Positions 3,884 through 13,492 of a stretch of DNA of 32,000 nt are shown in pieces. The translations under genes were made by a program, and so were the position numbers. The stretch covers positions 330,001 through 362,000 of the forward strand of contig NZ_CP027570.1 of assembly GCF_003010495.1 (NCBI RefSeq). The letters are read 5' to 3'. Under the pieces are notes generated by a model. It made no database searches, was not told where the DNA came from, and saw only the letters and a program-made list of their open reading frames with translations. Origin of the DNA: Megasphaera elsdenii DSM 20460. Its GTDB lineage: Bacteria > Bacillota > Negativicutes > Veillonellales > Megasphaeraceae. The stretch's first letter is position 1, and the number at the start of each line of letters is the position of its first letter.

Positions 3884-3977
3884 AAAAAAATAACCACACG
3901 GCTCATGAACCGCGTGGTTATCGTATTCTTTATGGTGGAGATAAGGAGGATCGAACTCCTGACCTCTTGCATGCCAT
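3884..3977 (-). repeat. Copy A of a tRNA-Ala-derived repeat: 3' 45 nt of tRNA-Ala (3933-3977) plus its downstream hairpin terminator (3884-3932)
   Basis: The reverse complement reads ATGGCATGCAAGAGGTCAGGAGTTCGATCCTCCTTATCTCCACCATAAAGAATACGATAACCACGCGGTTCATGAGCCGTGTGGTTATTTTTT. This matches 15711-15803 (anticodon loop to CCA of the intact tRNA-Ala, plus terminator) with one C-to-T change in the hairpin. The 5' half of the tRNA is absent. Confidence 0.9.
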
Positions 3978-4153: not shown

Positions 4154-4687
4154 TTACACGTCGCTAGCTAACGTATGTTTCGAGGCTTCTCCTTTTCCAT
4201 TGCGCAGGGCTATTTGCAGGGTGTACGTAGGATAGCTGACGCCACCTTCTACTTGTTTTGGCTCCAATACAATCCCATCGACCTTATAGCCATCGACAGC
4301 ATCGTTGCCCTCATAAAGCATCTTGAAACGGAGTTCATAAGTACCGGATGGCAGATTTTCCATTTTAAAACTTCCGTGTTCACAAATCGTGAAAGCACGG
4401 ATTGGATGAGCATCCTCGCCGGTTGTCCAAAGGCGTGCGTACACGGGGTTTTCATTATTACTATTATCAATAACGAGTGCATGATACCCGTCATCATCTT
4501 CTACTGGCTGATTCGGTACATAAGCACTGACGACGCCTTCTTTCGGCTTTCCCTTAATGGTTTGAACGACCTTCGTCTTTTCAGCAGGCTGCCGGTATTC
4601 AGCAATCAAAGCTTTCACATGCGGATAAAGTAAAGCAACAACTCCAACCGCAACGAGAATAGCTACCAAATGCATTGATTTTTTCAT
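4154..4687 (-). CDS. Hypothetical membrane-anchored protein: N-terminal TM/signal anchor plus a beta-rich domain. It is the last gene of the toxin array.
   Basis: The ORF track gives 4154-4732. The start was moved to ATG 4687 (MKKSMHLVAILVAVGVVALL...) because GAAGGT lies 8 nt upstream. It has one hydrophobic helix. The soluble domain includes FKMENLPSGTYELRFKM, which resembles CarboxypepD_reg/PEGA-type beta-sandwich motifs. No confident family match. Confidence 0.6.
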   Translation of the reverse strand: MKKSMHLVAILVAVGVVALLYPHVKALIAEYRQPAEKTKVVQTIKGKPKEGVVSAYVPNQPVEDDDGYHALVIDNSNNENPVYARLWTTGEDAHPIRAFTICEHGSFKMENLPSGTYELRFKMLYEGNDAVDGYKVDGIVLEPKQVEGGVSYPTYTLQIALRNGKGEASKHTLASDV

Positions 4688-4704
4688 CTCTACTACCTTC
4701 TCAA

Positions 4705-5115
4705 CTAATAAAGCATTTTGTATATAATCCATATAATTATTGAAGCTAAAACCATCACAATGCTAGACATAACAACAAAATGTCCCATAACTTTAAAGGG
4801 AAATAAAGTTTCTTTATACACTTTTTCATCATTTTGTTGTCTCGCATATATGAGTTTTCCCAGCGCTTTGATTAATAGCCCTAAAATATACAAGACTATC
4901 GAATAATTAAAAGCACTATCAGCCTTTAAGAAGATTACCATGCTGATTAATGCAATCCCTGTGATACCAAAACTCGATGAATATAATATAAAAGGTATCG
5001 TTCTTCGTCGATAGATGTTAAATCGAGAAAGATGAATGCTTTGAGCATATATAATCAAAAAGCAACCAAAAATCAAAATATTATTCGAAGAATGACTGGC
5101 CAGCATAAGCATCAC
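4705..5115 (-). CDS. Small multi-pass (about 4 TM) membrane protein, candidate cognate immunity protein for toxin cassette 1
   Basis: 136 aa, very AT-rich. It starts inside or overlapping the toxin stop (GTGATG overlaps TGA at 5112-5115). An alternative ATG at 5106 lies 9 nt after GAGGAA. Hydrophobic segments include ILIFGCFLIIY, GITGIALISMVIFL, IVLYILGLLIKAL and HFVVMSSIVMVLASIIIWII. Its position directly 3' of a toxin C-terminal domain is the canonical immunity position. Confidence 0.6.
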   Translation of the reverse strand: MMLMLASHSSNNILIFGCFLIIYAQSIHLSRFNIYRRRTIPFILYSSSFGITGIALISMVIFLKADSAFNYSIVLYILGLLIKALGKLIYARQQNDEKVYKETLFPFKVMGHFVVMSSIVMVLASIIIWIIYKMLY

Positions 5116-8100
5116 TTCCTCTTTTTTAGATTTTTTAAGTTATCATTTTTAATGCTATCTAAAATTCTAGAAATCATTACTTTTCCCAATATAGTATTAA
5201 CTAATGGGTCGTATCCTAATCTACCAGCAAAGTATCCAATATAGGCTCCTCCTGCCGTAGGTAAAAAAACATCTGATACAGCAAAAATATGTCCATAAGG
5301 AACGATATAATTTTGCACATCTTCTCGTGCTGTATAAAAATCATCTAGCGTCCCCAACGGCTTCAAATCTTTGCCAACTGCTTTAAGGACTGTATCATCA
5401 CCGGTACTAAGCACATTTTCTTTCAGGACATCTGCGGAATATCGGGTCATTGCATTGTCCGGAACCGGTACTTTTCGTTGAACTGGTTGTGAAAGAGCAA
5501 TGCCACTTCCAATCAAAGCTAAATCAGCATCATTGGGCTTTTTAGGGGCTGGAGGTATTGCCGTAAATCCATCATCGCTTACTTGCATAGCTGCTGGCGG
5601 CAGCGAAGAAGGAATAATTTTGTCTTTATGTTCATTTACAAAAGACACAGGTATAGGAGCTTCCATTTTTGTATCAACATACATTTTTCTGGGTGCGGAA
5701 TAAACAATATCCGCTCCATCAAGTACCGATTCTTCGCCATAAGTGACATCTAACAACTGTGCTGTTTCGTTTTGTGGATTCGATAATTCAATATTTCCAA
5801 ATTTATTATGGATTCTATCATAAGGCAATTCTTTCCAATCATCCTCTCCATCAGCAGTCTGATAATAACCGCTATAAAGATTACCGGTATCAATGCCAGT
5901 TAAAAATCTGCGATGTAGTTGATCATATCCGCCATCATCAGAATATAGATGCCCGTCAATTTGATATTTTCCTGTAACTATATTGCTCCCATCACTACCC
6001 ATTTTATGAATAGAGCCATCTTCAGCCACTACCTCTTGGTATGTTACCGGAGGATCAATAGGGACTGATTCTGGTGAAGTGGAAACTGATTCCGATGTAT
6101 CGCTGTCATCATAATTATCAATATTATCGTCTGATGATGAGCCACTATTGGGATAATTATTTTCTACATTTAACACACTTTCATAGTTCCAATCATTTGC
6201 ATCCGTATTATAAGAAACGTCGCCGCCAGCTTCTTGTGTACCACCCAGGATGAGGGCACCTGCTACACCTATGCTGCCTACCGTTGCTCCTGCGATTTCT
6301 CCTGCGCCATCCTCTAAAAGAAGCGCGGCAGCATAAACCTCAGCAGCAAGTTCATCATTCCATTTCGTTCCATACTGTGCTGTAGCTCCGCCTGTCTGGA
6401 TATTCTTGCCGGCAGCCGCATTGACAGTAGCACCCAAAGTTGCGCTGATCCATTGGGCTTTAGCCGGGTCATTTCCTGCCCATTCTTTAATCTTATTAAT
6501 GAGCAGTTCATTCGTCATGCCCGCGGCAAAGCCACTGCCGGCCTTATTTCCAGCAATCCGGCTCGTGATTTCGGCTACAAGGCCATGAGCCAGGGCTTTA
6601 TCGAATTTGCCATCGCGGTCATAGTAATGGAGCAGTTCATCTGCATTTTTCGCAAAGAGCCGGGCCAGTTCCTGCCGTTCTTCTACTTTCTGCTTATCAA
6701 AGATGTGGTCCAGCGTCTGTAGGGCATGGGCTGTATCACGGTTGATCTTCGTCACATCCGTGACTCCTTGGGTGACTTGAATCGTCCCCTGGGAAATGGC
6801 TGACCGGGTGACTGAATGAGCATCTTTAGTGGTGCCTGGCAAAATATCCGGTGTGAGGCCGGTTTCATTGAAATGCTGGTTGCGTTCCTGGTCTGACGCA
6901 TAGTGGTTATAAGCCACACCGGTATTTTTTACGTCATAAGCGGCCTTATTCTGGATATCTTCCAGGTGCAGGGTGCCGGTCGTCAGGTGATTACGGTTGG
7001 CATCGGCCGTGCTGGCGATGACAGCCCCTTTGAGTTGGGTATCCTTGTTCACATCCACATCATACCCCTGGTCACCGGCATAGATACCGGCCTGTTCGGT
7101 CACGCTGGCGTAATCACTGGTCGTCTTCCCACGGCTGTACGAAGCGTTTCCACTTTTCGCCCCCGTCCCAGTATAGGTGAAATGCGTAGCATGGGTCCCT
7201 TGTGGCAAGAAATTTTCCTGGACGTCAATAGAGGGGGAATAAGCTACGCTAATTCCAGTCGACGAACGATTACCCCGGTAGGTCTCTGAATCCTGTACAC
7301 TTTCGATGTGCAGATTTCCGCCCGTCTTTACGGTCACAGACTGTCCCTGGAGCTGGGAACCGACGAGGGTTGTATCCTTTCCAGAACTCGTCATCAGGCG
7401 GTCTTGTGCCGTGACGTGGCTGCCCGTATGGGTGACGCGCGTCGTCGTCCCTTGGTCTTTCATCTTGCCATACGATGCGTCGATACTGGTCAGGCCGCCA
7501 TGGAAGGACGCTCCGATGGAAGCGCCATGACTCTGATAACTGTCACGGATGGTTTCTTCATTCGTACCGGCCTGGAGGCGGACGGCTCCGCTGGCCGTGA
7601 GGGATACATTCTTCCCTTGAATAGATTCGCCAACCGCCGTCAGATTTCCTTTATTTTTCGGTGAACTTTCAGCCCGGACCGTCACGTCGCCGGCACTCAT
7701 CATCCGGCCGCCGACATAGGTCTGCTGATTCACTTCTGATTCCTGTTTAAAGGAACTGGAGCCAATCCCGACATGCAGGCCAACTGACGTCACATCGGCA
7801 GGCGATTTGCCTTTCAGGTCCTTCCGGAGGTTCCGGCCGGCTTCTACCAGTTCCAAGCCCTGCAAGGTCTTATTGTCCCGCGACTGGGCCGTGCGGACGG
7901 CACCGCGGAAGGTTTCACCCGCCGAAATGGCCGAATTACTCAGACTGAGGCTCAGGCCCGACCGGGATTCTTCATGGGTCCGTTTTTCGTGGGCTTCATT
8001 CGTCGCCCCATCGACGAGCACTTCCTGTCCCGTCAAGGTCACGCCCTGCTGGCCGAAGACATCGGCTGTCGTCAAATGGGCCGTATCGCCCGCAGCCAGG

Positions 8101-8225
8101 GTCAGGCTGCCGCCTGTCGATGCCAGGGTACTGCCGACCTGGGTTTTCCATTCTCCTTCATAATTATCCTTTGTCTGCTGGGTCCCGATGAGGACGCCCA
8201 ATCCGGCACCGAGAACGCCGGACAA
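5112..8225 (-). CDS. 5'-truncated CdiA/FhaB-family polymorphic toxin cassette 1: haemagglutinin (FHA-2) repeat core, pre-toxin region and a unique 414-aa C-terminal domain
   Basis: 1037 aa ORF called from TTG. The frame is actually open to 8276, and core-like GC-rich sequence begins about 8258, right at the stop of the upstream gene. Repeat-rich sequence is typical of TPS exoproteins (GDVTVRAES...GNLTAVGESIQGKNVSLTASGAVRLQAG...VTVKTGGNLHIESVQDSETYRGNRSSTGISVAY). There is no signal peptide, no TPS domain and no RBS. Sequence after ...AQYGTKWN (6357-6365) is unrelated to cassette 2. Confidence 0.8.
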   Translation of the reverse strand: MSGVLGAGLGVLIGTQQTKDNYEGEWKTQVGSTLASTGGSLTLAAGDTAHLTTADVFGQQGVTLTGQEVLVDGATNEAHEKRTHEESRSGLSLSLSNSAISAGETFRGAVRTAQSRDNKTLQGLELVEAGRNLRKDLKGKSPADVTSVGLHVGIGSSSFKQESEVNQQTYVGGRMMSAGDVTVRAESSPKNKGNLTAVGESIQGKNVSLTASGAVRLQAGTNEETIRDSYQSHGASIGASFHGGLTSIDASYGKMKDQGTTTRVTHTGSHVTAQDRLMTSSGKDTTLVGSQLQGQSVTVKTGGNLHIESVQDSETYRGNRSSTGISVAYSPSIDVQENFLPQGTHATHFTYTGTGAKSGNASYSRGKTTSDYASVTEQAGIYAGDQGYDVDVNKDTQLKGAVIASTADANRNHLTTGTLHLEDIQNKAAYDVKNTGVAYNHYASDQERNQHFNETGLTPDILPGTTKDAHSVTRSAISQGTIQVTQGVTDVTKINRDTAHALQTLDHIFDKQKVEERQELARLFAKNADELLHYYDRDGKFDKALAHGLVAEITSRIAGNKAGSGFAAGMTNELLINKIKEWAGNDPAKAQWISATLGATVNAAAGKNIQTGGATAQYGTKWNDELAAEVYAAALLLEDGAGEIAGATVGSIGVAGALILGGTQEAGGDVSYNTDANDWNYESVLNVENNYPNSGSSSDDNIDNYDDSDTSESVSTSPESVPIDPPVTYQEVVAEDGSIHKMGSDGSNIVTGKYQIDGHLYSDDGGYDQLHRRFLTGIDTGNLYSGYYQTADGEDDWKELPYDRIHNKFGNIELSNPQNETAQLLDVTYGEESVLDGADIVYSAPRKMYVDTKMEAPIPVSFVNEHKDKIIPSSLPPAAMQVSDDGFTAIPPAPKKPNDADLALIGSGIALSQPVQRKVPVPDNAMTRYSADVLKENVLSTGDDTVLKAVGKDLKPLGTLDDFYTAREDVQNYIVPYGHIFAVSDVFLPTAGGAYIGYFAGRLGYDPLVNTILGKVMISRILDSIKNDNLKNLKKRK
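6357..7913 (-). repeat. 1.56 kb near-identical direct repeat, copy 1 (shared toxin core)
   Basis: It aligns base for base with 9375-10931 at a constant offset of 3018 bp. Only scattered substitutions were seen, about a dozen amino-acid differences across about 516 codons by eye. The boundaries are sharp at both ends. Confidence 0.9.
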
Positions 8226-8262
8226 CTTGACCTCGGTATAGGCCGTCGCCGCTAGTGCAAGA

Positions 8263-8637
8263 TTATGTCTTGTTATCTACACTCGGTCTAGTAATCCAAT
8301 AAATAATCAATAATATTCCCAATACAGGCATAAATATTGCAAACATCCAATAACCACTTTTGTTTACATCATGCAATCTTTTTACACTAATAACTATTAC
8401 CAACCAAGAAAAGAGAAATTGATATAAAATTAAAAATAAAGATATAAAAATCGAAATAAACAAATCATCCAAAAGGTTGGCAAAATGTAACGACAATAGA
8501 ATGGCACTTAAAATAACTACACCCAAAAAGTAAACAATATTAATATGCAAAAAACGTCTCCGATATTCTAATAAATTGATGTTTCCTTGAAAAGAAAAAT
8601 ACTTTTTCCATATCTCTTTATATTTTTTGGGGAGCAT
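8263..8637 (-). CDS. DUF805-family inner-membrane protein, candidate immunity protein for toxin cassette 2
   Basis: 124 aa, AT-rich. GGAGG lies 8 nt upstream of ATG 8637, 14 nt after the toxin 2 stop. It has 3-4 hydrophobic helices and the DUF805 signature KRLHDVNKSGYWMFAIFMPVLGILLIIYWITRPS (compare RRLHDxxxSGWW). Confidence 0.7.
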   Translation of the reverse strand: MLPKKYKEIWKKYFSFQGNINLLEYRRRFLHINIVYFLGVVILSAILLSLHFANLLDDLFISIFISLFLILYQFLFSWLVIVISVKRLHDVNKSGYWMFAIFMPVLGILLIIYWITRPSVDNKT

Positions 8638-8651
8638 ACTTATACCTCCAT

Positions 8652-11015
8652 TTATATTTCATCCTTTATAAGCATTTCAATGTATTCCCGTCCTACTTTA
8701 TCCACAGTCCGAGGAATCAAGCCCATATCTTCAGCTAATTTAATAGTATTAATTTTTAATAATAATCCTCCTCCGCCCCCAACATAAATTTCTCCACCAA
8801 TACTTAAATACACGTCTTTTCCTGTATATGTAGTGCCTATTGGCTTCAAATTTGATAATATGGAAAAGTCTTCAGTATAAGAACCAGTTTGTGGATTATA
8901 TGAACGTTCATAACTACTTCCTAAAAGGCCATCAAAAAGACCAATCTCTCCATTATTATTAATTGTTAAAGGTGAATTTGTAGATATATTCAAATAAACA
9001 TTTCCCCCAATGGAAATAAAACCAATCTTCCCTCCTAATCCTATTCCTAGATGCCCTTCTACGCTAGCTCTAGTTCGTTTAGGAAGTGTTTCTGCATATA
9101 AGCGCAATAACTCACGCAAATTTTCTGTCATTGTAAAATCCGAACAATACTTATAAGTTATACCCAAATATTGAGCAGCTCTATTAAATGTATATATAAA
9201 ATCATTCTCACCAACTTCAGGTACATCAGGATTATCTCTGCTAATGATGTACGCACTTTCTAAAACCATGATAACTCCATTGAAATTGCCTTGTTCTAAG
9301 TTTTCGTGTAAGTATTGAGCAATCGACGGATATGATCCATCCCCATCAAAACTTTGTTGAAAATGATCTAATCCATTCCATTTGATACCATACTGTGCTG
9401 TAGCTCCGCCTGTCTGGATATTCTTGCCGGTAGCCGCATTGACAGTAGCACCCAAAGCTGCGCTAATCCATTGGGCTTTGGCCGGGTCATTTCCCGCCCA
9501 TTCTTTAATCTTATTCATGAGCAGTTCATTCGTCATGCCCGCGGCAAAGCCACTGCCGGCCTTATTTCCGGCAAGCTGGCTCGTGATTTCGGCTACAAGG
9601 CCATGAGCCAGGGCTTTATCGAATTTGCCGTCGCGGTCATAGTAATGAAGCAGTTCATCTGCATTTTTCGCAAAGAGTCGGGCCAGTTCCTGCCGTTCTT
9701 CTACTTTCTGCTTATCAAAGATGTGATTCAGCGTCTGTAGGGCATGGGCTGTATCACGGTTGATTTTCGTCACATCCGTGACTCCTTGGGTGACTTGAAT
9801 CGTCCCCTGGGAAATGGCTGACCGGGTGACTGAATGTGCATCTTTAGCAGCACCTGGCAAAATATCCGGTGTGAGGCCGGTTTCGTTGAAATGCTGGTTG
9901 CGTTCCTGGTCTGACGCATAGTGGTTATAAGCCACACCGGTATTTTTTACGTCATAAGCGGCCTTATTCTGGATGTCTTCCAGGTGCAGGGTGCCGGTCG
10001 TCAGGTGATTACGGTTGGCATCGGCCGTGCTGGCGATGACAGCCCCTTTGAGTTGGGTATCCTTGTTCACATCCACATCATACCCCTGGTCACCGGCATA
10101 GATACCGGCCTGTTCGGTCACGCTGGCGTAATCACTGGTCGTCTTCCCACGGCTGTACGAAGCGTTTCCACTTTTCGCCCCCGTCCCAGTATAGGTGAAA
10201 TGCGTAGCATGGGTCCCTTGTGGCAAGAAATTTTCCTGGACGTCAACAGAGGGGGAATAAGCTACGCTAATTCCAGTCGACGAACGATTACCCCGGTAGG
10301 TCTCTGAATCCTGTACACTTTCGATGTGCAGATTTCCGCCCGTCTTTACGGTCACAGACTGTCCCTGGAGCTGGGAACCGACGAGGGTTGTATCCTTTCC
10401 AGAACTCATCATCAGGCGGTCTTGTGCCGTGACGTGGCTGCCCGTATGGGTGACGCGCGTCGTCGTCCCTTGGTCTTTCATCTTGCCATACGATGCGTCG
10501 ATACTGGTCAGGCCGCCATGGAAGGACGCTCCGATTGAAGCGCCATGGCTCTGATAGCTGTCGCGGATGGTTTCTTCATTCGTACCGGCCTGGAGGCGGA
10601 CAGCTCCGCTGGCCGTGAGGGATACATTCTTCCCTTGAATAGATTCGCCAACCGCCGTCAGATTTCCTTTATTTTTCGGTGAACTTTCAGCCCGGACCGT
10701 CACGTCGCCGGCACTCATCATCCGGCCGCCGGCATAGGTCTGATGATTCACTTCTGATTCCTGTTTGAAGGAGCTGGAGCCAATCCCGACGTGCAGGCCA
10801 ACTGACGTCACATCGGCAGGCGATTTTCCTTTCAGATCCTTCCGGAGGTTCCGGCCGGCTTCTACCAGTTCCAAGCCCTGCAAGGTCTTATTGTCCCGCG
10901 ACTGGGCCGTGCGGACGGCGCCGCGGAAGGATTCAATAGGAAGTTCACTACGGTAAGGTAATTTAGAAATTTTGAAGGCAGGACTAGGAACATTAGCTTG
11001 ATAAAACAGTAACAC
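8652..11015 (-). CDS. 5'-truncated CdiA/FhaB-family polymorphic toxin cassette 2: shared core plus a unique 240-aa glycine-rich C-terminal domain
   Basis: 787 aa ORF called from GTG. Homology to cassette 1 begins abruptly at FRGAVRTAQSRDNKTLQG (nt 10931) after 28 unrelated AT-rich codons. It is identical in architecture up to AQYGIKWN (9375-9383) and then diverges completely (GLDHFQQSFDGDGSY...GHLGIGLGGKIGFISIGGNVYL...LSIGGEIYVGGGGGLLLKI...). Confidence 0.8.
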   Translation of the reverse strand: MLLFYQANVPSPAFKISKLPYRSELPIESFRGAVRTAQSRDNKTLQGLELVEAGRNLRKDLKGKSPADVTSVGLHVGIGSSSFKQESEVNHQTYAGGRMMSAGDVTVRAESSPKNKGNLTAVGESIQGKNVSLTASGAVRLQAGTNEETIRDSYQSHGASIGASFHGGLTSIDASYGKMKDQGTTTRVTHTGSHVTAQDRLMMSSGKDTTLVGSQLQGQSVTVKTGGNLHIESVQDSETYRGNRSSTGISVAYSPSVDVQENFLPQGTHATHFTYTGTGAKSGNASYSRGKTTSDYASVTEQAGIYAGDQGYDVDVNKDTQLKGAVIASTADANRNHLTTGTLHLEDIQNKAAYDVKNTGVAYNHYASDQERNQHFNETGLTPDILPGAAKDAHSVTRSAISQGTIQVTQGVTDVTKINRDTAHALQTLNHIFDKQKVEERQELARLFAKNADELLHYYDRDGKFDKALAHGLVAEITSQLAGNKAGSGFAAGMTNELLMNKIKEWAGNDPAKAQWISAALGATVNAATGKNIQTGGATAQYGIKWNGLDHFQQSFDGDGSYPSIAQYLHENLEQGNFNGVIMVLESAYIISRDNPDVPEVGENDFIYTFNRAAQYLGITYKYCSDFTMTENLRELLRLYAETLPKRTRASVEGHLGIGLGGKIGFISIGGNVYLNISTNSPLTINNNGEIGLFDGLLGSSYERSYNPQTGSYTEDFSILSNLKPIGTTYTGKDVYLSIGGEIYVGGGGGLLLKINTIKLAEDMGLIPRTVDKVGREYIEMLIKDEI
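9375..10931 (-). repeat. 1.56 kb near-identical direct repeat, copy 2 (shared toxin core)
   Basis: See 6357-7913. Same orientation, offset 3018 bp. Confidence 0.9.
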
Positions 11016-11131
11016 GAGGACATTACCAATTCCTTTAGCTTTGGTGGTGGTATTTCCAGTCCATTCATTAATATCATTAACTTTAAAATCATATCAATCT
11101 ATCACATAACACTCTTGGCATTATGTAGCGT

Positions 11132-11527
11132 TTACGATAGGTATAAAATGATTAGTATGCCGAAATAAAGTGCAGCTATAATCCATATTATTAAATTAAC
11201 ATAAATTTCTTTCATGGACTTATGTTGAGCTCGCAAATAATTCCTTCTTCCATAAATCATTACGCCATACCAAATGAAGAAAAAAATAAGTGTAAAAATT
11301 GCCGAAAAAAAATAGTACACTTCATCTGGCTTCATAATGATTACACATATAAAATTAAACAACGCTGCGGAAAATATAATGCTAATAATAAAAAATTGTT
11401 TTTTAGGCACATATCTCAATAATATTTTTTCTTTATCTGTTTGTTTTACTCTAAAAATAAATGATTTTAATATTTCGAATAAAAGTATACTTATGCCAAC
11501 ACAATATATTATATCTTTAAAATCCAT
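11132..11527 (-). CDS. Small 4-TM membrane protein, candidate orphan immunity gene of a decayed third cassette
   Basis: 131 aa, very AT-rich. GAAGGAG lies 7-8 nt upstream of ATG 11527. Hydrophobic segments include IIYCVGISILLFEIL, FFIISIIFSAALFNFICVII, YYFFSAIFTLIFFFIWYGVMIY and IIWIIAALYFGILIILYL. It lies just downstream of the toxin-core remnant at 11587-11717. Confidence 0.55.
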   Translation of the reverse strand: MDFKDIIYCVGISILLFEILKSFIFRVKQTDKEKILLRYVPKKQFFIISIIFSAALFNFICVIIMKPDEVYYFFSAIFTLIFFFIWYGVMIYGRRNYLRAQHKSMKEIYVNLIIWIIAALYFGILIILYLS

Positions 11528-11586
11528 TTTATTTCTCCTTCAGTTCTCCTTGCGCGCATCTAGATTTGTGATATTTGTCAATATAG

Positions 11587-11717
11587 CTCTGACAGCTGTC
11601 ACAGAAGGCTTCCTCATTCGTACCGGCCTAGAGACGGACATCTCCCCATTGGCCGTGAAAGATACATTCCTACCTTAAATATTTTCGCCAACAGCTGTCA
11701 GATTTCCTTTATTTTTC
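11587..11717 (-). pseudogene. Degenerate fragment of the toxin repeat core (third copy)
   Basis: It aligns with 7531-7659 of cassette 1 (CTCTGA.A.CTGTCAC...TTCATTCGTACCGGCCT.GAG.CGGAC...CAGATTTCCTTTATTTTTC). It has many substitutions, a 2-nt indel and an in-frame TAA (VGENI*GRNVSFTA against VGESIQGKNVSLTA). Confidence 0.8.
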
Positions 11718-11876
11718 CCGGATTCCGATGCGGCTTCGCCGCGTCAATTTCATGATTGTATTACGACCATGTGCCATCTGTCATAAATTCCGGCTATGTA
11801 CAGGATTCACAGCGGTACGCCCTTTGGGCGTCCCCTACGGTATCGCATAGAGGCGATGAAAATGAACGCAGGCCGT

Positions 11877-11932
11877 AAAAAAATAACCATGCGGCTCATG
11901 AACCGCGTGGTTATCGTATTCTTTATGATGAC
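11877..11932 (-). repeat. Copy B of the tRNA-Ala-downstream repeat, which also serves as the terminator hairpin of the phn operon
   Basis: The reverse complement CATCATAAAGAATACGATAACCACGCGGTTCATGAGCCGCATGGTTATTTTTTT matches 15751-15803 (CACCATAAAGAATACG...GCCGCGTGGTTATTTTTT). It has one hairpin mismatch and one mismatch in the CCA-end remnant. It lies 13 nt after the phnE stop. Confidence 0.85.
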
Positions 11933-11944
11933 AAGATGGATTCA

Positions 11945-13492
11945 TTATGACATGTTGTTGATCCGCTGTTTTTTACGCAGCCATTCCGAAAATATTTCAA
12001 CGACCGTCACCATTCCTACCATCCCCCATAACAAGGCTCCGGCAGCGGCCCATTCATAATGCATCATCGCCAAAATCAGCGGGGTACCGATGCCACCGGC
12101 ACCGACCAGACCCAGGATGGCAGCATCACGCAGATTGATATCTAACCGGTACAGGATAGCCGCTCCGTAACGAGGTCCCAATTGGGGCAGGACAGCCCAA
12201 CGGACAGATCGCACGGCAGAAACCCCCATGCCCCGGCATGCGCGGTACGGCTCCAGATGAATATCGTCGATAGCGATGAGGAACCGCTTGGCCAGGAGGC
12301 CCACACTGCACAGAGTCAGTGTCAGCACACCGGCAAAAGGCCCAGGACCGGTAACGCGAATCCACATCAAGCCATATACAAAGACGGGAACAGTGCGGAT
12401 GAGCAACAATATCAGCCGGGAAGCCAGTGCTGCTGGTGCAGAAAAGAGCCGGAAACTAGCGGTAAAGGAAAACCAGGCAGCAATGACCGTTCCCCCTAGT
12501 GTACCCAGAAAAGCAATGCAAAATGTTTCATATAATAACCAGGGAACGCCATCATGAGCTAAAGAACATATCATAGACCAGTCGGGATGAATGATTCCCT
12601 GTACCATAGCCGCAGCGGCTGCCATTCCCTTCCCATCTGTATCTGGCAGAACCAGCGTCTGAAAAGAGGAAAGAAATAACCCGGCCAATACTAGTCCCAA
12701 TACCGTCTTTTCTGTCCGGGATAAATGTCTTTTACCAGAAAGGACCTGGCGCAGCCATTCACTGACTCCTTCGGTCAATATGACAACCCCATATAACAGT
12801 AATAGAATCATGCCAACTTCACTGTATTCGCGCCAGGCCAGCCTTTCATTCAGCAACAGGCCGATACCACCGGCCCCGACGTAGCCAAGGATAGCCGCAT
12901 GACGCACATTGGCTTCCAGCATATACAATACATTAATCAGATATCCTGCCAGCACCACCGGAAGGATAGTGCGAATGAACGCCCGCAGACGGCCGCATCC
13001 CGCCGCTTCCAGCGCTTTGGCTGCTTTCTGGTCAGCATTTTCCATATCTTCATAACCCATACGGGCCATGACCGCTGTCGTATATATGCTCAGGGCCAGT
13101 GTCCCTGCCAGCGTTCCCAAACCGACGAGAAAGGTGCACAAAAGTGCCAGGATCAGAGCCGGGATAGTACGGATGAGATGGATGACTGCCTTGAACGGAA
13201 CACGCAGCCAGGCATGAGGATTGAGATAGGCACTGGCAAAGGAGCCCCCCACCAATCCCAGCACAGCTCCGATGCCTGTACCGGCCAGGGACATCTGCAC
13301 CGTGGCCCAAAGTGGTGCCAGTACGATCCGGCCATAGGACATATCCGGAGGTATCATGGCTCCGGCAATATCGAAGAAACGCACACCTCGCCGCAATAAG
13401 AGTGATAAAGACACGCCGGCACTTTCCCCGCAGAGGATAGTTAATGCCAGAAACAGCAGCACCATGACCGTACGGCGCAAGGAATACCTCAT
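11945..13492 (-). CDS. phnE: Phosphonate/phosphite-type ABC transporter permease, fused double PhnE
   Basis: 515 aa, about 12 predicted TM helices in two homologous halves. PhnE-like sequence is present in both halves (GAILGYVGAGGIGLLL and AAILGLVGAGGIGTPL). The ATGA start overlaps the phnC stop. Confidence 0.8.
   Translation of the reverse strand: MRYSLRRTVMVLLFLALTILCGESAGVSLSLLLRRGVRFFDIAGAMIPPDMSYGRIVLAPLWATVQMSLAGTGIGAVLGLVGGSFASAYLNPHAWLRVPFKAVIHLIRTIPALILALLCTFLVGLGTLAGTLALSIYTTAVMARMGYEDMENADQKAAKALEAAGCGRLRAFIRTILPVVLAGYLINVLYMLEANVRHAAILGYVGAGGIGLLLNERLAWREYSEVGMILLLLYGVVILTEGVSEWLRQVLSGKRHLSRTEKTVLGLVLAGLFLSSFQTLVLPDTDGKGMAAAAAMVQGIIHPDWSMICSLAHDGVPWLLYETFCIAFLGTLGGTVIAAWFSFTASFRLFSAPAALASRLILLLIRTVPVFVYGLMWIRVTGPGPFAGVLTLTLCSVGLLAKRFLIAIDDIHLEPYRACRGMGVSAVRSVRWAVLPQLGPRYGAAILYRLDINLRDAAILGLVGAGGIGTPLILAMMHYEWAAAGALLWGMVGMVTVVEIFSEWLRKKQRINNMS

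Follow-up and report, generated by a model that had tools for sequence, protein, structure and literature searches.

A rare, putative CdiA/TpsA-type toxin C-terminal domain and its putative DUF805 immunity protein in an orphan cassette of Megasphaera elsdenii

We analyzed a window of 32,000 nucleotides from Megasphaera elsdenii DSM 20460 (contig NZ_CP027570.1, positions 330,001 to 362,000), in which a haemagglutinin-repeat open reading frame (ORF), here called cassette 2, ends in a variable C-terminal domain (CT) and is directly followed by a gene for a 124-amino-acid protein of the DUF805 family. Comparison with related loci indicates that the CT and the DUF805 gene very probably form a toxin/immunity pair. 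The explanation that we favor overall, a CdiA/TpsA-type CT with a DUF805 immunity protein and an action at the membrane, is probable, and the membrane-permeabilizing nature of the toxin itself is put forward tentatively, as a nearly balanced possibility. Toxicity, protection, the membrane target and the neutralization within the membrane are all points that we infer.

All relevant genes of cassette 2 lie on the minus strand (Table 1). A first-pass annotation of this DNA had described a 240-amino-acid C-terminal domain of a larger ORF, and this was borne out at 9374-8655; both glycine-rich segments that it had quoted, GHLGIGLGGKIGFISIGGNVYLNIS and VYLSIGGEIYVGGGGGLLLKI, were found inside the CT. 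The repeat D1, which is 95% identical between cassette 2 and the neighboring cassette 3, breaks off exactly at 9374, and the GC content falls from ~0.55 upstream of the CT to ~0.37 within it, which together mark 9374 as a genuine module boundary. The short gap and the strong GGAGG that had been reported before the downstream ORF were also confirmed, the 14-nt spacer being ATGGAGGTATAAGT, with GGAGG 7 nt ahead of the ATG at 8637. A Pfam profile search detected neither a two-partner-secretion (TPS) domain in the two window cassettes nor a TpsB in the window, and the cassette is therefore an orphan, incomplete TPS system. The PT-VENN model (PF04829) was unmatched at E values up to 1, both in the window and in the related TpsA loci represented by L007.

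The assignment of the downstream protein to DUF805 was upheld by the Pfam hidden Markov model (HMM) PF05656, which matched with 53.6 bits against a cut-off of 25.7 (E 3.6e-14) over profile positions 1-104 of 111. The DUF805 signature KRLHDVNKSGYW is located in a loop between transmembrane (TM) helices, and the protein thus resembles the family both in a full domain-length match and in its small size and polytopic membrane topology, including the basic KR(L)HD...SG(W/Y)W loop. Its start methionine is also the start in close homologues, of which 13 were found; PF05656 was present in all 12 of those with precomputed Pfam domains listed. The clade keeps 21 invariant alignment columns among copies down to 42% identity to the window protein, and K86, R87, L88, H89, D90, S94, G95 and W97 are invariant across it. 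An AlphaFold model showed three long helices (residues 22-52, 59-91 and 97-115) with almost no extramembrane mass, and the hydropathy segments support a polytopic protein. Foldseek returned no matches for this model, PHROGs gave merely a generic 'membrane protein' match, and PADLOC reported nothing meaningful for the locus. The family, which we take to include YhaH and YhaI of E. coli, had been introduced as a widespread inner-membrane family with no established function; in agreement with this, the searched literature contained neither a function for DUF805 nor a link between DUF805 and immunity. The window clade differs from the other DUF805 genes inspected in being tied to a toxin cassette: the few unrelated genes examined had no toxin neighbor, the one annotated context being a C. 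botulinum plasmid, and a tblastn search of plasmids with DUF805 gave four distant partial matches.

The contexts of DUF805 among the homologues fell into two classes, directly behind the same CT or without a CT. In the first class, L025 was 99% identical to the window, whereas the CT and the DUF805 protein were 85% and 71% identical in L007, L009 and L010, and ~69% and 42% identical in L024, a metagenome-assembled genome of Megasphaera sp. The pre-toxin region was 76% identical in L007 and 62% in L024. In both comparisons, the DUF805 gene diverges faster than the toxin CT. In L007, the CT terminates a 2326-amino-acid TpsA (TPS domain, 172.7 bits) that adjoins a TpsB (ShlB, 324.2 bits, plus POTRA domains), and the DUF805 start lies 14 nt past the toxin stop, as in the window. 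The arrangement TTGGAGG-N7-ATG was common to the window, L007, L024 and the toxin-less arrays described below, and the pair, the short spacing and the ribosome-binding site were kept across three diverged pairs. In independent metagenome contigs (P0014, L025 and P0001), the window ORFs themselves were 99-100% conserved. For locus scanning, an alignment of seven CT sequences was too divergent, and an alignment of five was used, which yielded one genome locus and four metagenome loci. The association of DUF805 with toxins was seen only with TpsA/CdiA-type carriers and in one DUF805 clade; Rhs, LXG and MafB proteins were not among the carriers seen.

In the second class (L001-L006, L011-L014, L019, L020 and L021), the flanks retrieved around the DUF805 gene, of up to 10 kb, contained no CT. 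These copies are embedded in arrays of small membrane-protein genes, one of which (L001_133) is 81% identical to the 130-amino-acid gene in the slot behind the orphan cassette of L007. In L001, L011 and L021, the ~55 nt ahead of the orphan DUF805 start could be aligned to the final codons of the toxin gene together with its ribosome-binding site. This toxin 3' remnant is a deletion scar and shows that the orphan DUF805 copies descend from CT+DUF805 cassettes. Toxin-less, clustered with slot-gene homologues and retaining a toxin remnant, they look as orphan immunity arrays do. A cognate immunity gene is recognized by conserved synteny in the first slot behind the toxin, by faster divergence than the toxin, and by retention after loss of the toxin. 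Because all three were seen here, we read the DUF805 gene as an immunity gene, and the placement of DUF805 in the immunity slot, as first proposed, is supported by three independent lines of comparison, namely the conserved pairing, the carriage by a full-length TpsA/TpsB system in L007 and the scarred toxin-less copies.

Several further observations were made on the toxin-less copies. The arrays of L001-L006 and L011-L014 (about 7600-13200) contain an ADP-ribosylglycohydrolase gene, three paralogous genes for TM proteins of 130-133 amino acids and a PM0498-domain gene, and adjoin restriction-modification genes; they resemble acquired immunity islands. In L015-L018, the DUF805 gene is clipped by an insertion sequence (IS) element: it encodes 104 amino acids (L015 7167-7481) that align to window residues 7-106, is shorter at both ends, and directly follows an IS3-type transposase pair (HTH_Tnp_1 and rve). 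Upstream of it are YadA-type adhesin genes, including one with an SLH domain, presumably a marker of the Negativicutes. The metagenome protein P0019 (119 amino acids) carries the end of the CT in its last 38 residues, at 100% identity, fused to an unrelated N-terminus, which is a further sign of recombination or deletion at the toxin 3' end.

The CT had no match in Pfam or NCBIfam and no PDB sequence match, a PDB search with the CT profile returning zero, and a word-indexed search with the CT missed its homologues. Its rarity was assessed by an exhaustive phmmer scan instead, which found 8 representatives in 1.84 billion proteins. Five of the 8 matches were full-length homologues with 29-36% identity, and P0021 shares the C-terminal half only. 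All homologues are located at the C-terminus of TpsA-type or haemagglutinin-repeat proteins, and most retain part of the pre-toxin region, which ends in GxKWNG in five of them, in KWND in P0021 and in NYNG in P0016; the boundary motif Q(Y/W)G(I/T)KWN is present in all aligned family members but one. The P0018-type CT (36% identical) forms the end of a 2390-amino-acid TpsA, whose locus (L033) also encodes a TpsB.

An AlphaFold model of the CT, built on an alignment of seven sequences (predicted local distance difference test, pLDDT, 75.9; predicted template modeling score, pTM, 0.58), consisted of four helices (residues 24-102), eight antiparallel strands (109-215) and two short helices. The strands are strongly amphipathic, showing high hydrophobic moments at beta periodicity, with glycine or small polar residues on the opposite face. 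The glycine content is 13% overall and 20% in the beta part. The first-pass description of glycine-zipper-like, beta-like repeats held in its second half, the model being glycine-rich and beta-like, whereas a canonical zipper was not supported: GxxxGxxxG occurs once, at chance level as compared with shuffled sequences (P=0.37), and is not conserved in the homologues. The conserved patterns are instead G-x-G-x-G (invariant G110, G112 and G114) and IGGxxYxGxGG. In a Foldseek search of the PDB, the highest-probability matches of the model were designed and natural transmembrane beta-barrels; nothing in the PDB or BFVD exceeded a TM-score of 0.38, and BFVD gave nothing useful. A Colicin_M identity was considered for the CT and rejected, as the match was non-significant (E 0.14) and the colicin M catalytic motif was absent on inspection.

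In all five of the more distant CT lineages with downstream DNA, a small polytopic membrane protein follows the toxin. The P0018 type is followed by a 125-amino-acid three-TM protein, which we call 'IKRFR', and then by a 137-amino-acid TM protein; P0015, P0016 and P0017 have two-TM partners of 66-87 amino acids, and P0021 has a 126-amino-acid membrane protein of the 'IKYP' type. The partners of P0015, P0016, P0017 and P0021 share a first TM helix and then an (I/M)K(Y/F)(P/S) motif, which echoes the TM-then-(V/I)KR(L/F) junction of the DUF805 and 'IKRFR' families. P0021 shares the beta sub-domain only and yet keeps an 'IKYP'-type partner. It follows that the type of partner goes with the beta part, and this part is hence the likely toxic module. 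Since every CT lineage with downstream DNA has a small polytopic partner of this kind in the membrane, we consider an action on membranes the best inference for the toxin.

The 'IKRFR' family, indexed in 94 blocks of the contig collection, is like DUF805 in topology and has a similar loop, and the matches between the two were weak: BLASTP gave E 0.038, hhalign 0.3-1.2% probability and the DUF805 clade HMM E 6.5, and 5 of 10 members had sub-threshold Pfam DUF805 matches (best E 0.076). The 'IKRFR' protein was left out of the DUF805 counts. The DUF805 partner is confined to the Megasphaera-type CT clade, and the suggestion that its position would supply a functional hypothesis for at least some DUF805 members applies to this one clade, whereas the distant CT homologues use other membrane proteins.

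We propose that the minus-strand segment 9374-8263 represents the variable module of a polymorphic toxin of the two-partner-secretion (CdiA/TpsA) type, comprising the CT and its cognate immunity gene. The helical N-part of the CT probably serves in targeting or entry; it looks, by analogy, like the entry domain of CdiA-CTs, which is known to be exchangeable (PMC11630599). The glycine-rich amphipathic beta-meander would be the toxic part, and may act in or at the cytoplasmic membrane of the target cell in a pore-like or ionophore-like manner. Channel-forming effectors are neutralized almost always by polytopic membrane proteins (PMC12744356), and the contact-dependent growth inhibition (CDI) ionophores pair with small hydrophobic CdiI proteins (PMC11630599). 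The DUF805 protein, with its three predicted TM helices, may likewise bind the toxin in or at the membrane and so neutralize it. The orphan cassette could provide a reserve for recombination with a full-length tpsA located elsewhere, and its immunity gene might guard against neighbors deploying the same toxin, such as L007-type strains. A more specific version, in which the beta sub-domain inserts into the membrane as a beta-barrel-like pore former and the DUF805 fold is an intramembrane binder of such beta-hairpin toxins, appears improbable.

Several observations weigh against this explanation. Hydropathy analysis revealed no hydrophobic TM segment in the CT, and the beta-meander fold and the barrel analogy are tentative, because the Foldseek TM-scores did not exceed the value given above and the AlphaFold alignment was so small. 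Conserved polar residues (E, N and D in GENDF, D187, Y197 and N209) are also compatible with an enzyme. A promoter scan upstream of the immunity gene was no better than with shuffled sequences, and the CT of L024 contains a frameshift. In the window cassette, the secretion domain is missing and the 5' end is swapped for unrelated sequence, and the toxin may never be produced from it. The invariant polar residues, which occur in both CT sub-domains, and the lack of a TM segment fit a genuine toxin/immunity pair in which the toxin is not a pore former but works as an enzyme or binds a target or receptor embedded in the membrane; DUF805 would then occlude the target or block entry, and might do so by mimicking, in resistant form, a housekeeping DUF805 receptor. 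Specific inner-membrane proteins are indeed required for the entry of CDI toxins (PMC11630599), and the weak, non-significant Colicin_M match points in the same direction. We nevertheless regard such a toxin as unlikely, as hardly any part of the DUF805 protein lies outside the membrane, where it could inhibit an enzyme, Pfam, NCBIfam, PDB sequence searches and Foldseek gave no enzyme family, and related CTs are served by non-homologous small TM proteins, which suits intramembrane binding better than target mimicry.

It is also conceivable that DUF805 is not an immunity gene at all, but a toxin-handling helper or a membrane protein gene merely traveling with the cassette. Some toxin loci do hold accessory genes other than immunity genes, and DUF805 genes elsewhere, as in the C. 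botulinum plasmid context, are not linked to toxins. This is very unlikely, however, since the first-slot position, the 14-nt spacing and the ribosome-binding site are kept over the three diverged pairs, the gene diverges faster than the toxin, and it persists after toxin deletion beside other slot-gene homologues, where a helper would be useless. Least credible of all is a decaying relic whose ORFs are open by chance. The missing TPS domain and TpsB, the replaced 5' end and the already degraded cassette 1 would agree with it; against it, both the CT and the DUF805 ORFs are intact, their near-complete conservation extends to the independent metagenome contigs, and the DUF805 clade is evidently constrained, as represented by its invariant columns. 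A toxin/immunity pair acting at the membrane thus remains the explanation that we prefer.

Within known systems, the pair is a new toxin/immunity family in the well-known architecture of orphan cdiA-CT/cdiI modules. It resembles CDI systems (CdiB/CdiA/CdiI) in having a haemagglutinin-repeat toxin with a TpsB exporter, as seen in L007, and CDI orphan modules in its variable CT after a short boundary motif, the small immunity ORF directly downstream, and the tandem 5'-truncated cassettes sharing upstream homology. Fil_haemagg_2 repeats and a polymorphic CT with a downstream ORF were accordingly found in the window itself, whereas TPS/TpsB and PT-VENN were missing from it; the related loci L007 and L033 do carry the TPS domain and TpsB. 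The system differs from CDI in its Negativicute (Megasphaera-type) host, in the absence of cdiB and of a full-length cdiA from the window, and in its boundary motif: Q(Y/W)G(I/T)KWN(G/D) stands in place of the proteobacterial VENN, and the Pfam PT-VENN model misses the pre-toxin region.

The EC93-type CDI ionophores (Halvorsen et al. 2024, PMC11630599) have a similarly bipartite CT, helical in its N-part and toxic in its C-terminal part, as well as a conserved glycine-rich motif and hydrophobic, membrane-embedded, highly polymorphic immunity proteins; their CdiI proteins are two-TM hairpins, like the 66-87-amino-acid partners of the distant CT relatives. However, the ionophore domain of the EC93 type forms a five-helix bundle in which GxxxGxxxG is conserved, whereas the window CT is predicted to be all-beta in its toxic part with a conserved GxGxG, and the window immunity protein is a three-TM, 124-amino-acid DUF805 protein. 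As fold and motif differ and there is no sequence similarity, the CT, on its predicted structure, is not a member of the EC93-type family. Pore-forming colicins with their polytopic immunity proteins, and glycine-zipper effectors such as EsxX/TelE with ExiCD (PMC12744356), are comparable in that a membrane-acting toxin is opposed by a small multi-pass membrane protein, and in that orphan immunity copies occur in 'antitoxin islands'. They are unrelated in fold and in route of delivery, their toxins are helical, and none of these systems uses DUF805.

The features of the window and of the related loci are collected in Table 1. Two copies of a 54-nt direct repeat, 7993 bp apart and each reading as a terminator-like hairpin with a T-run on the minus strand, flank the entire toxin/immunity array, an island of ~8 kb, which suggests that the island was inserted at, or duplicated, the terminator behind the ABC permease gene. 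To judge from its sequence, cassette 1 looks as though it has lost its toxin and kept its slot gene. The CT of cassette 3 and the 136-amino-acid protein behind it are a second candidate toxin/immunity pair, as yet uncharacterized. The two antisense ORFs within the repeated haemagglutinin region are in all likelihood by-products of the high-GC repeat and not genes.

Table 1. Features of the toxin/immunity array and its flanks in the window, and partner genes behind related CTs in other loci.
Feature	Position	Strand	Remarks
ABC transporter, phosphonate-type	15292-11945	-	upstream of the toxin array
54-nt direct repeat, upstream copy	11877-11930	.	terminator-like hairpin just after the ABC permease stop; left island edge
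Degraded cassette-1 remnant (haemagglutinin-repeat)	11583-11717	-	84-87% identical to the other cassettes; stop codons
131-aa polytopic four-TM protein, intact	11132-11527	-	after the cassette-1 remnant
Cassette 2 ORF	11015-8652	-	787 aa; Fil_haemagg_2 106.9 bits (Pfam profile search)
Haemagglutinin-repeat and pre-toxin part, cassette 2	9375-11015	-	conserved; ends AQYGIKWN (9392-9375)
Variable CT (putative toxin domain)	8655-9374	-	240 aa; last 240 codons of the 787-aa ORF, after AQYGIKWN
Stop TAA (8654-8652) and 14-nt spacer	8638-8654	-	GGAGG ribosome-binding site 8649-8645
DUF805-family inner-membrane protein	8263-8637	-	124 aa; putative cognate immunity protein
Orphan cassette 3	5112-8225	-	1037 aa; filamentous haemagglutinin (FHA)/pre-toxin part shared with cassette 2 (~95%)
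Cassette 3 CT	6356-5115	-	414 aa, unlike cassette 2 CT; no Pfam match
136-aa polytopic membrane protein	4705-5115	-	start overlaps cassette 3 stop; immunity slot
192-aa membrane-anchored protein	4154-4732	-	after the 136-aa protein of cassette 3
54-nt direct repeat, downstream copy	3884-3937	.	94% identical; hairpin and T-run on minus strand; right island edge
Type I restriction enzyme R subunit	3768-574	-	beyond the downstream repeat
Boundary motif Q(Y/W)G(I/T)KWN(G/D)	9375-9392 and 6357-6374	-	also L007, L022, L023, L026, L028, L033
Two near-identical 128-aa antisense ORFs	9921-10307 and 6903-7289	+	within the repeated haemagglutinin region
Small membrane proteins with TM-then-(I/M)K(Y/F)(P/S) behind distant CTs	L026 3271-3528, L022 1802-2059, L027 6777-7040, L028 3266-3466, L029 1755-2135		
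'IKRFR' family, 125 aa, three TM, invariant KRFR	L023 3128-3505; L033 8001-8378		first slot behind the 36%-identical CT

These data define a previously unannotated, rare CT toxin family that is predicted to be beta-rich, unlike the known helical CDI ionophores; a beta-barrel-like pore former, if true, would add a hitherto undescribed type of contact-dependent toxin. The scarred orphan DUF805 copies are another example of an immunity-gene array, here in metagenome contigs. Immunity proteins are often recruited ad hoc, and the result may say little about DUF805 proteins generally; the same pore-former version, if true, would hint at a role of housekeeping DUF805 proteins in binding membrane-inserting peptides, in guarding against them or in serving as their receptors. 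One DUF805 clade nevertheless gains a concrete, testable functional hypothesis, namely immunity to a contact-delivered toxin, and this role, if true, would be the first function for one branch of DUF805.

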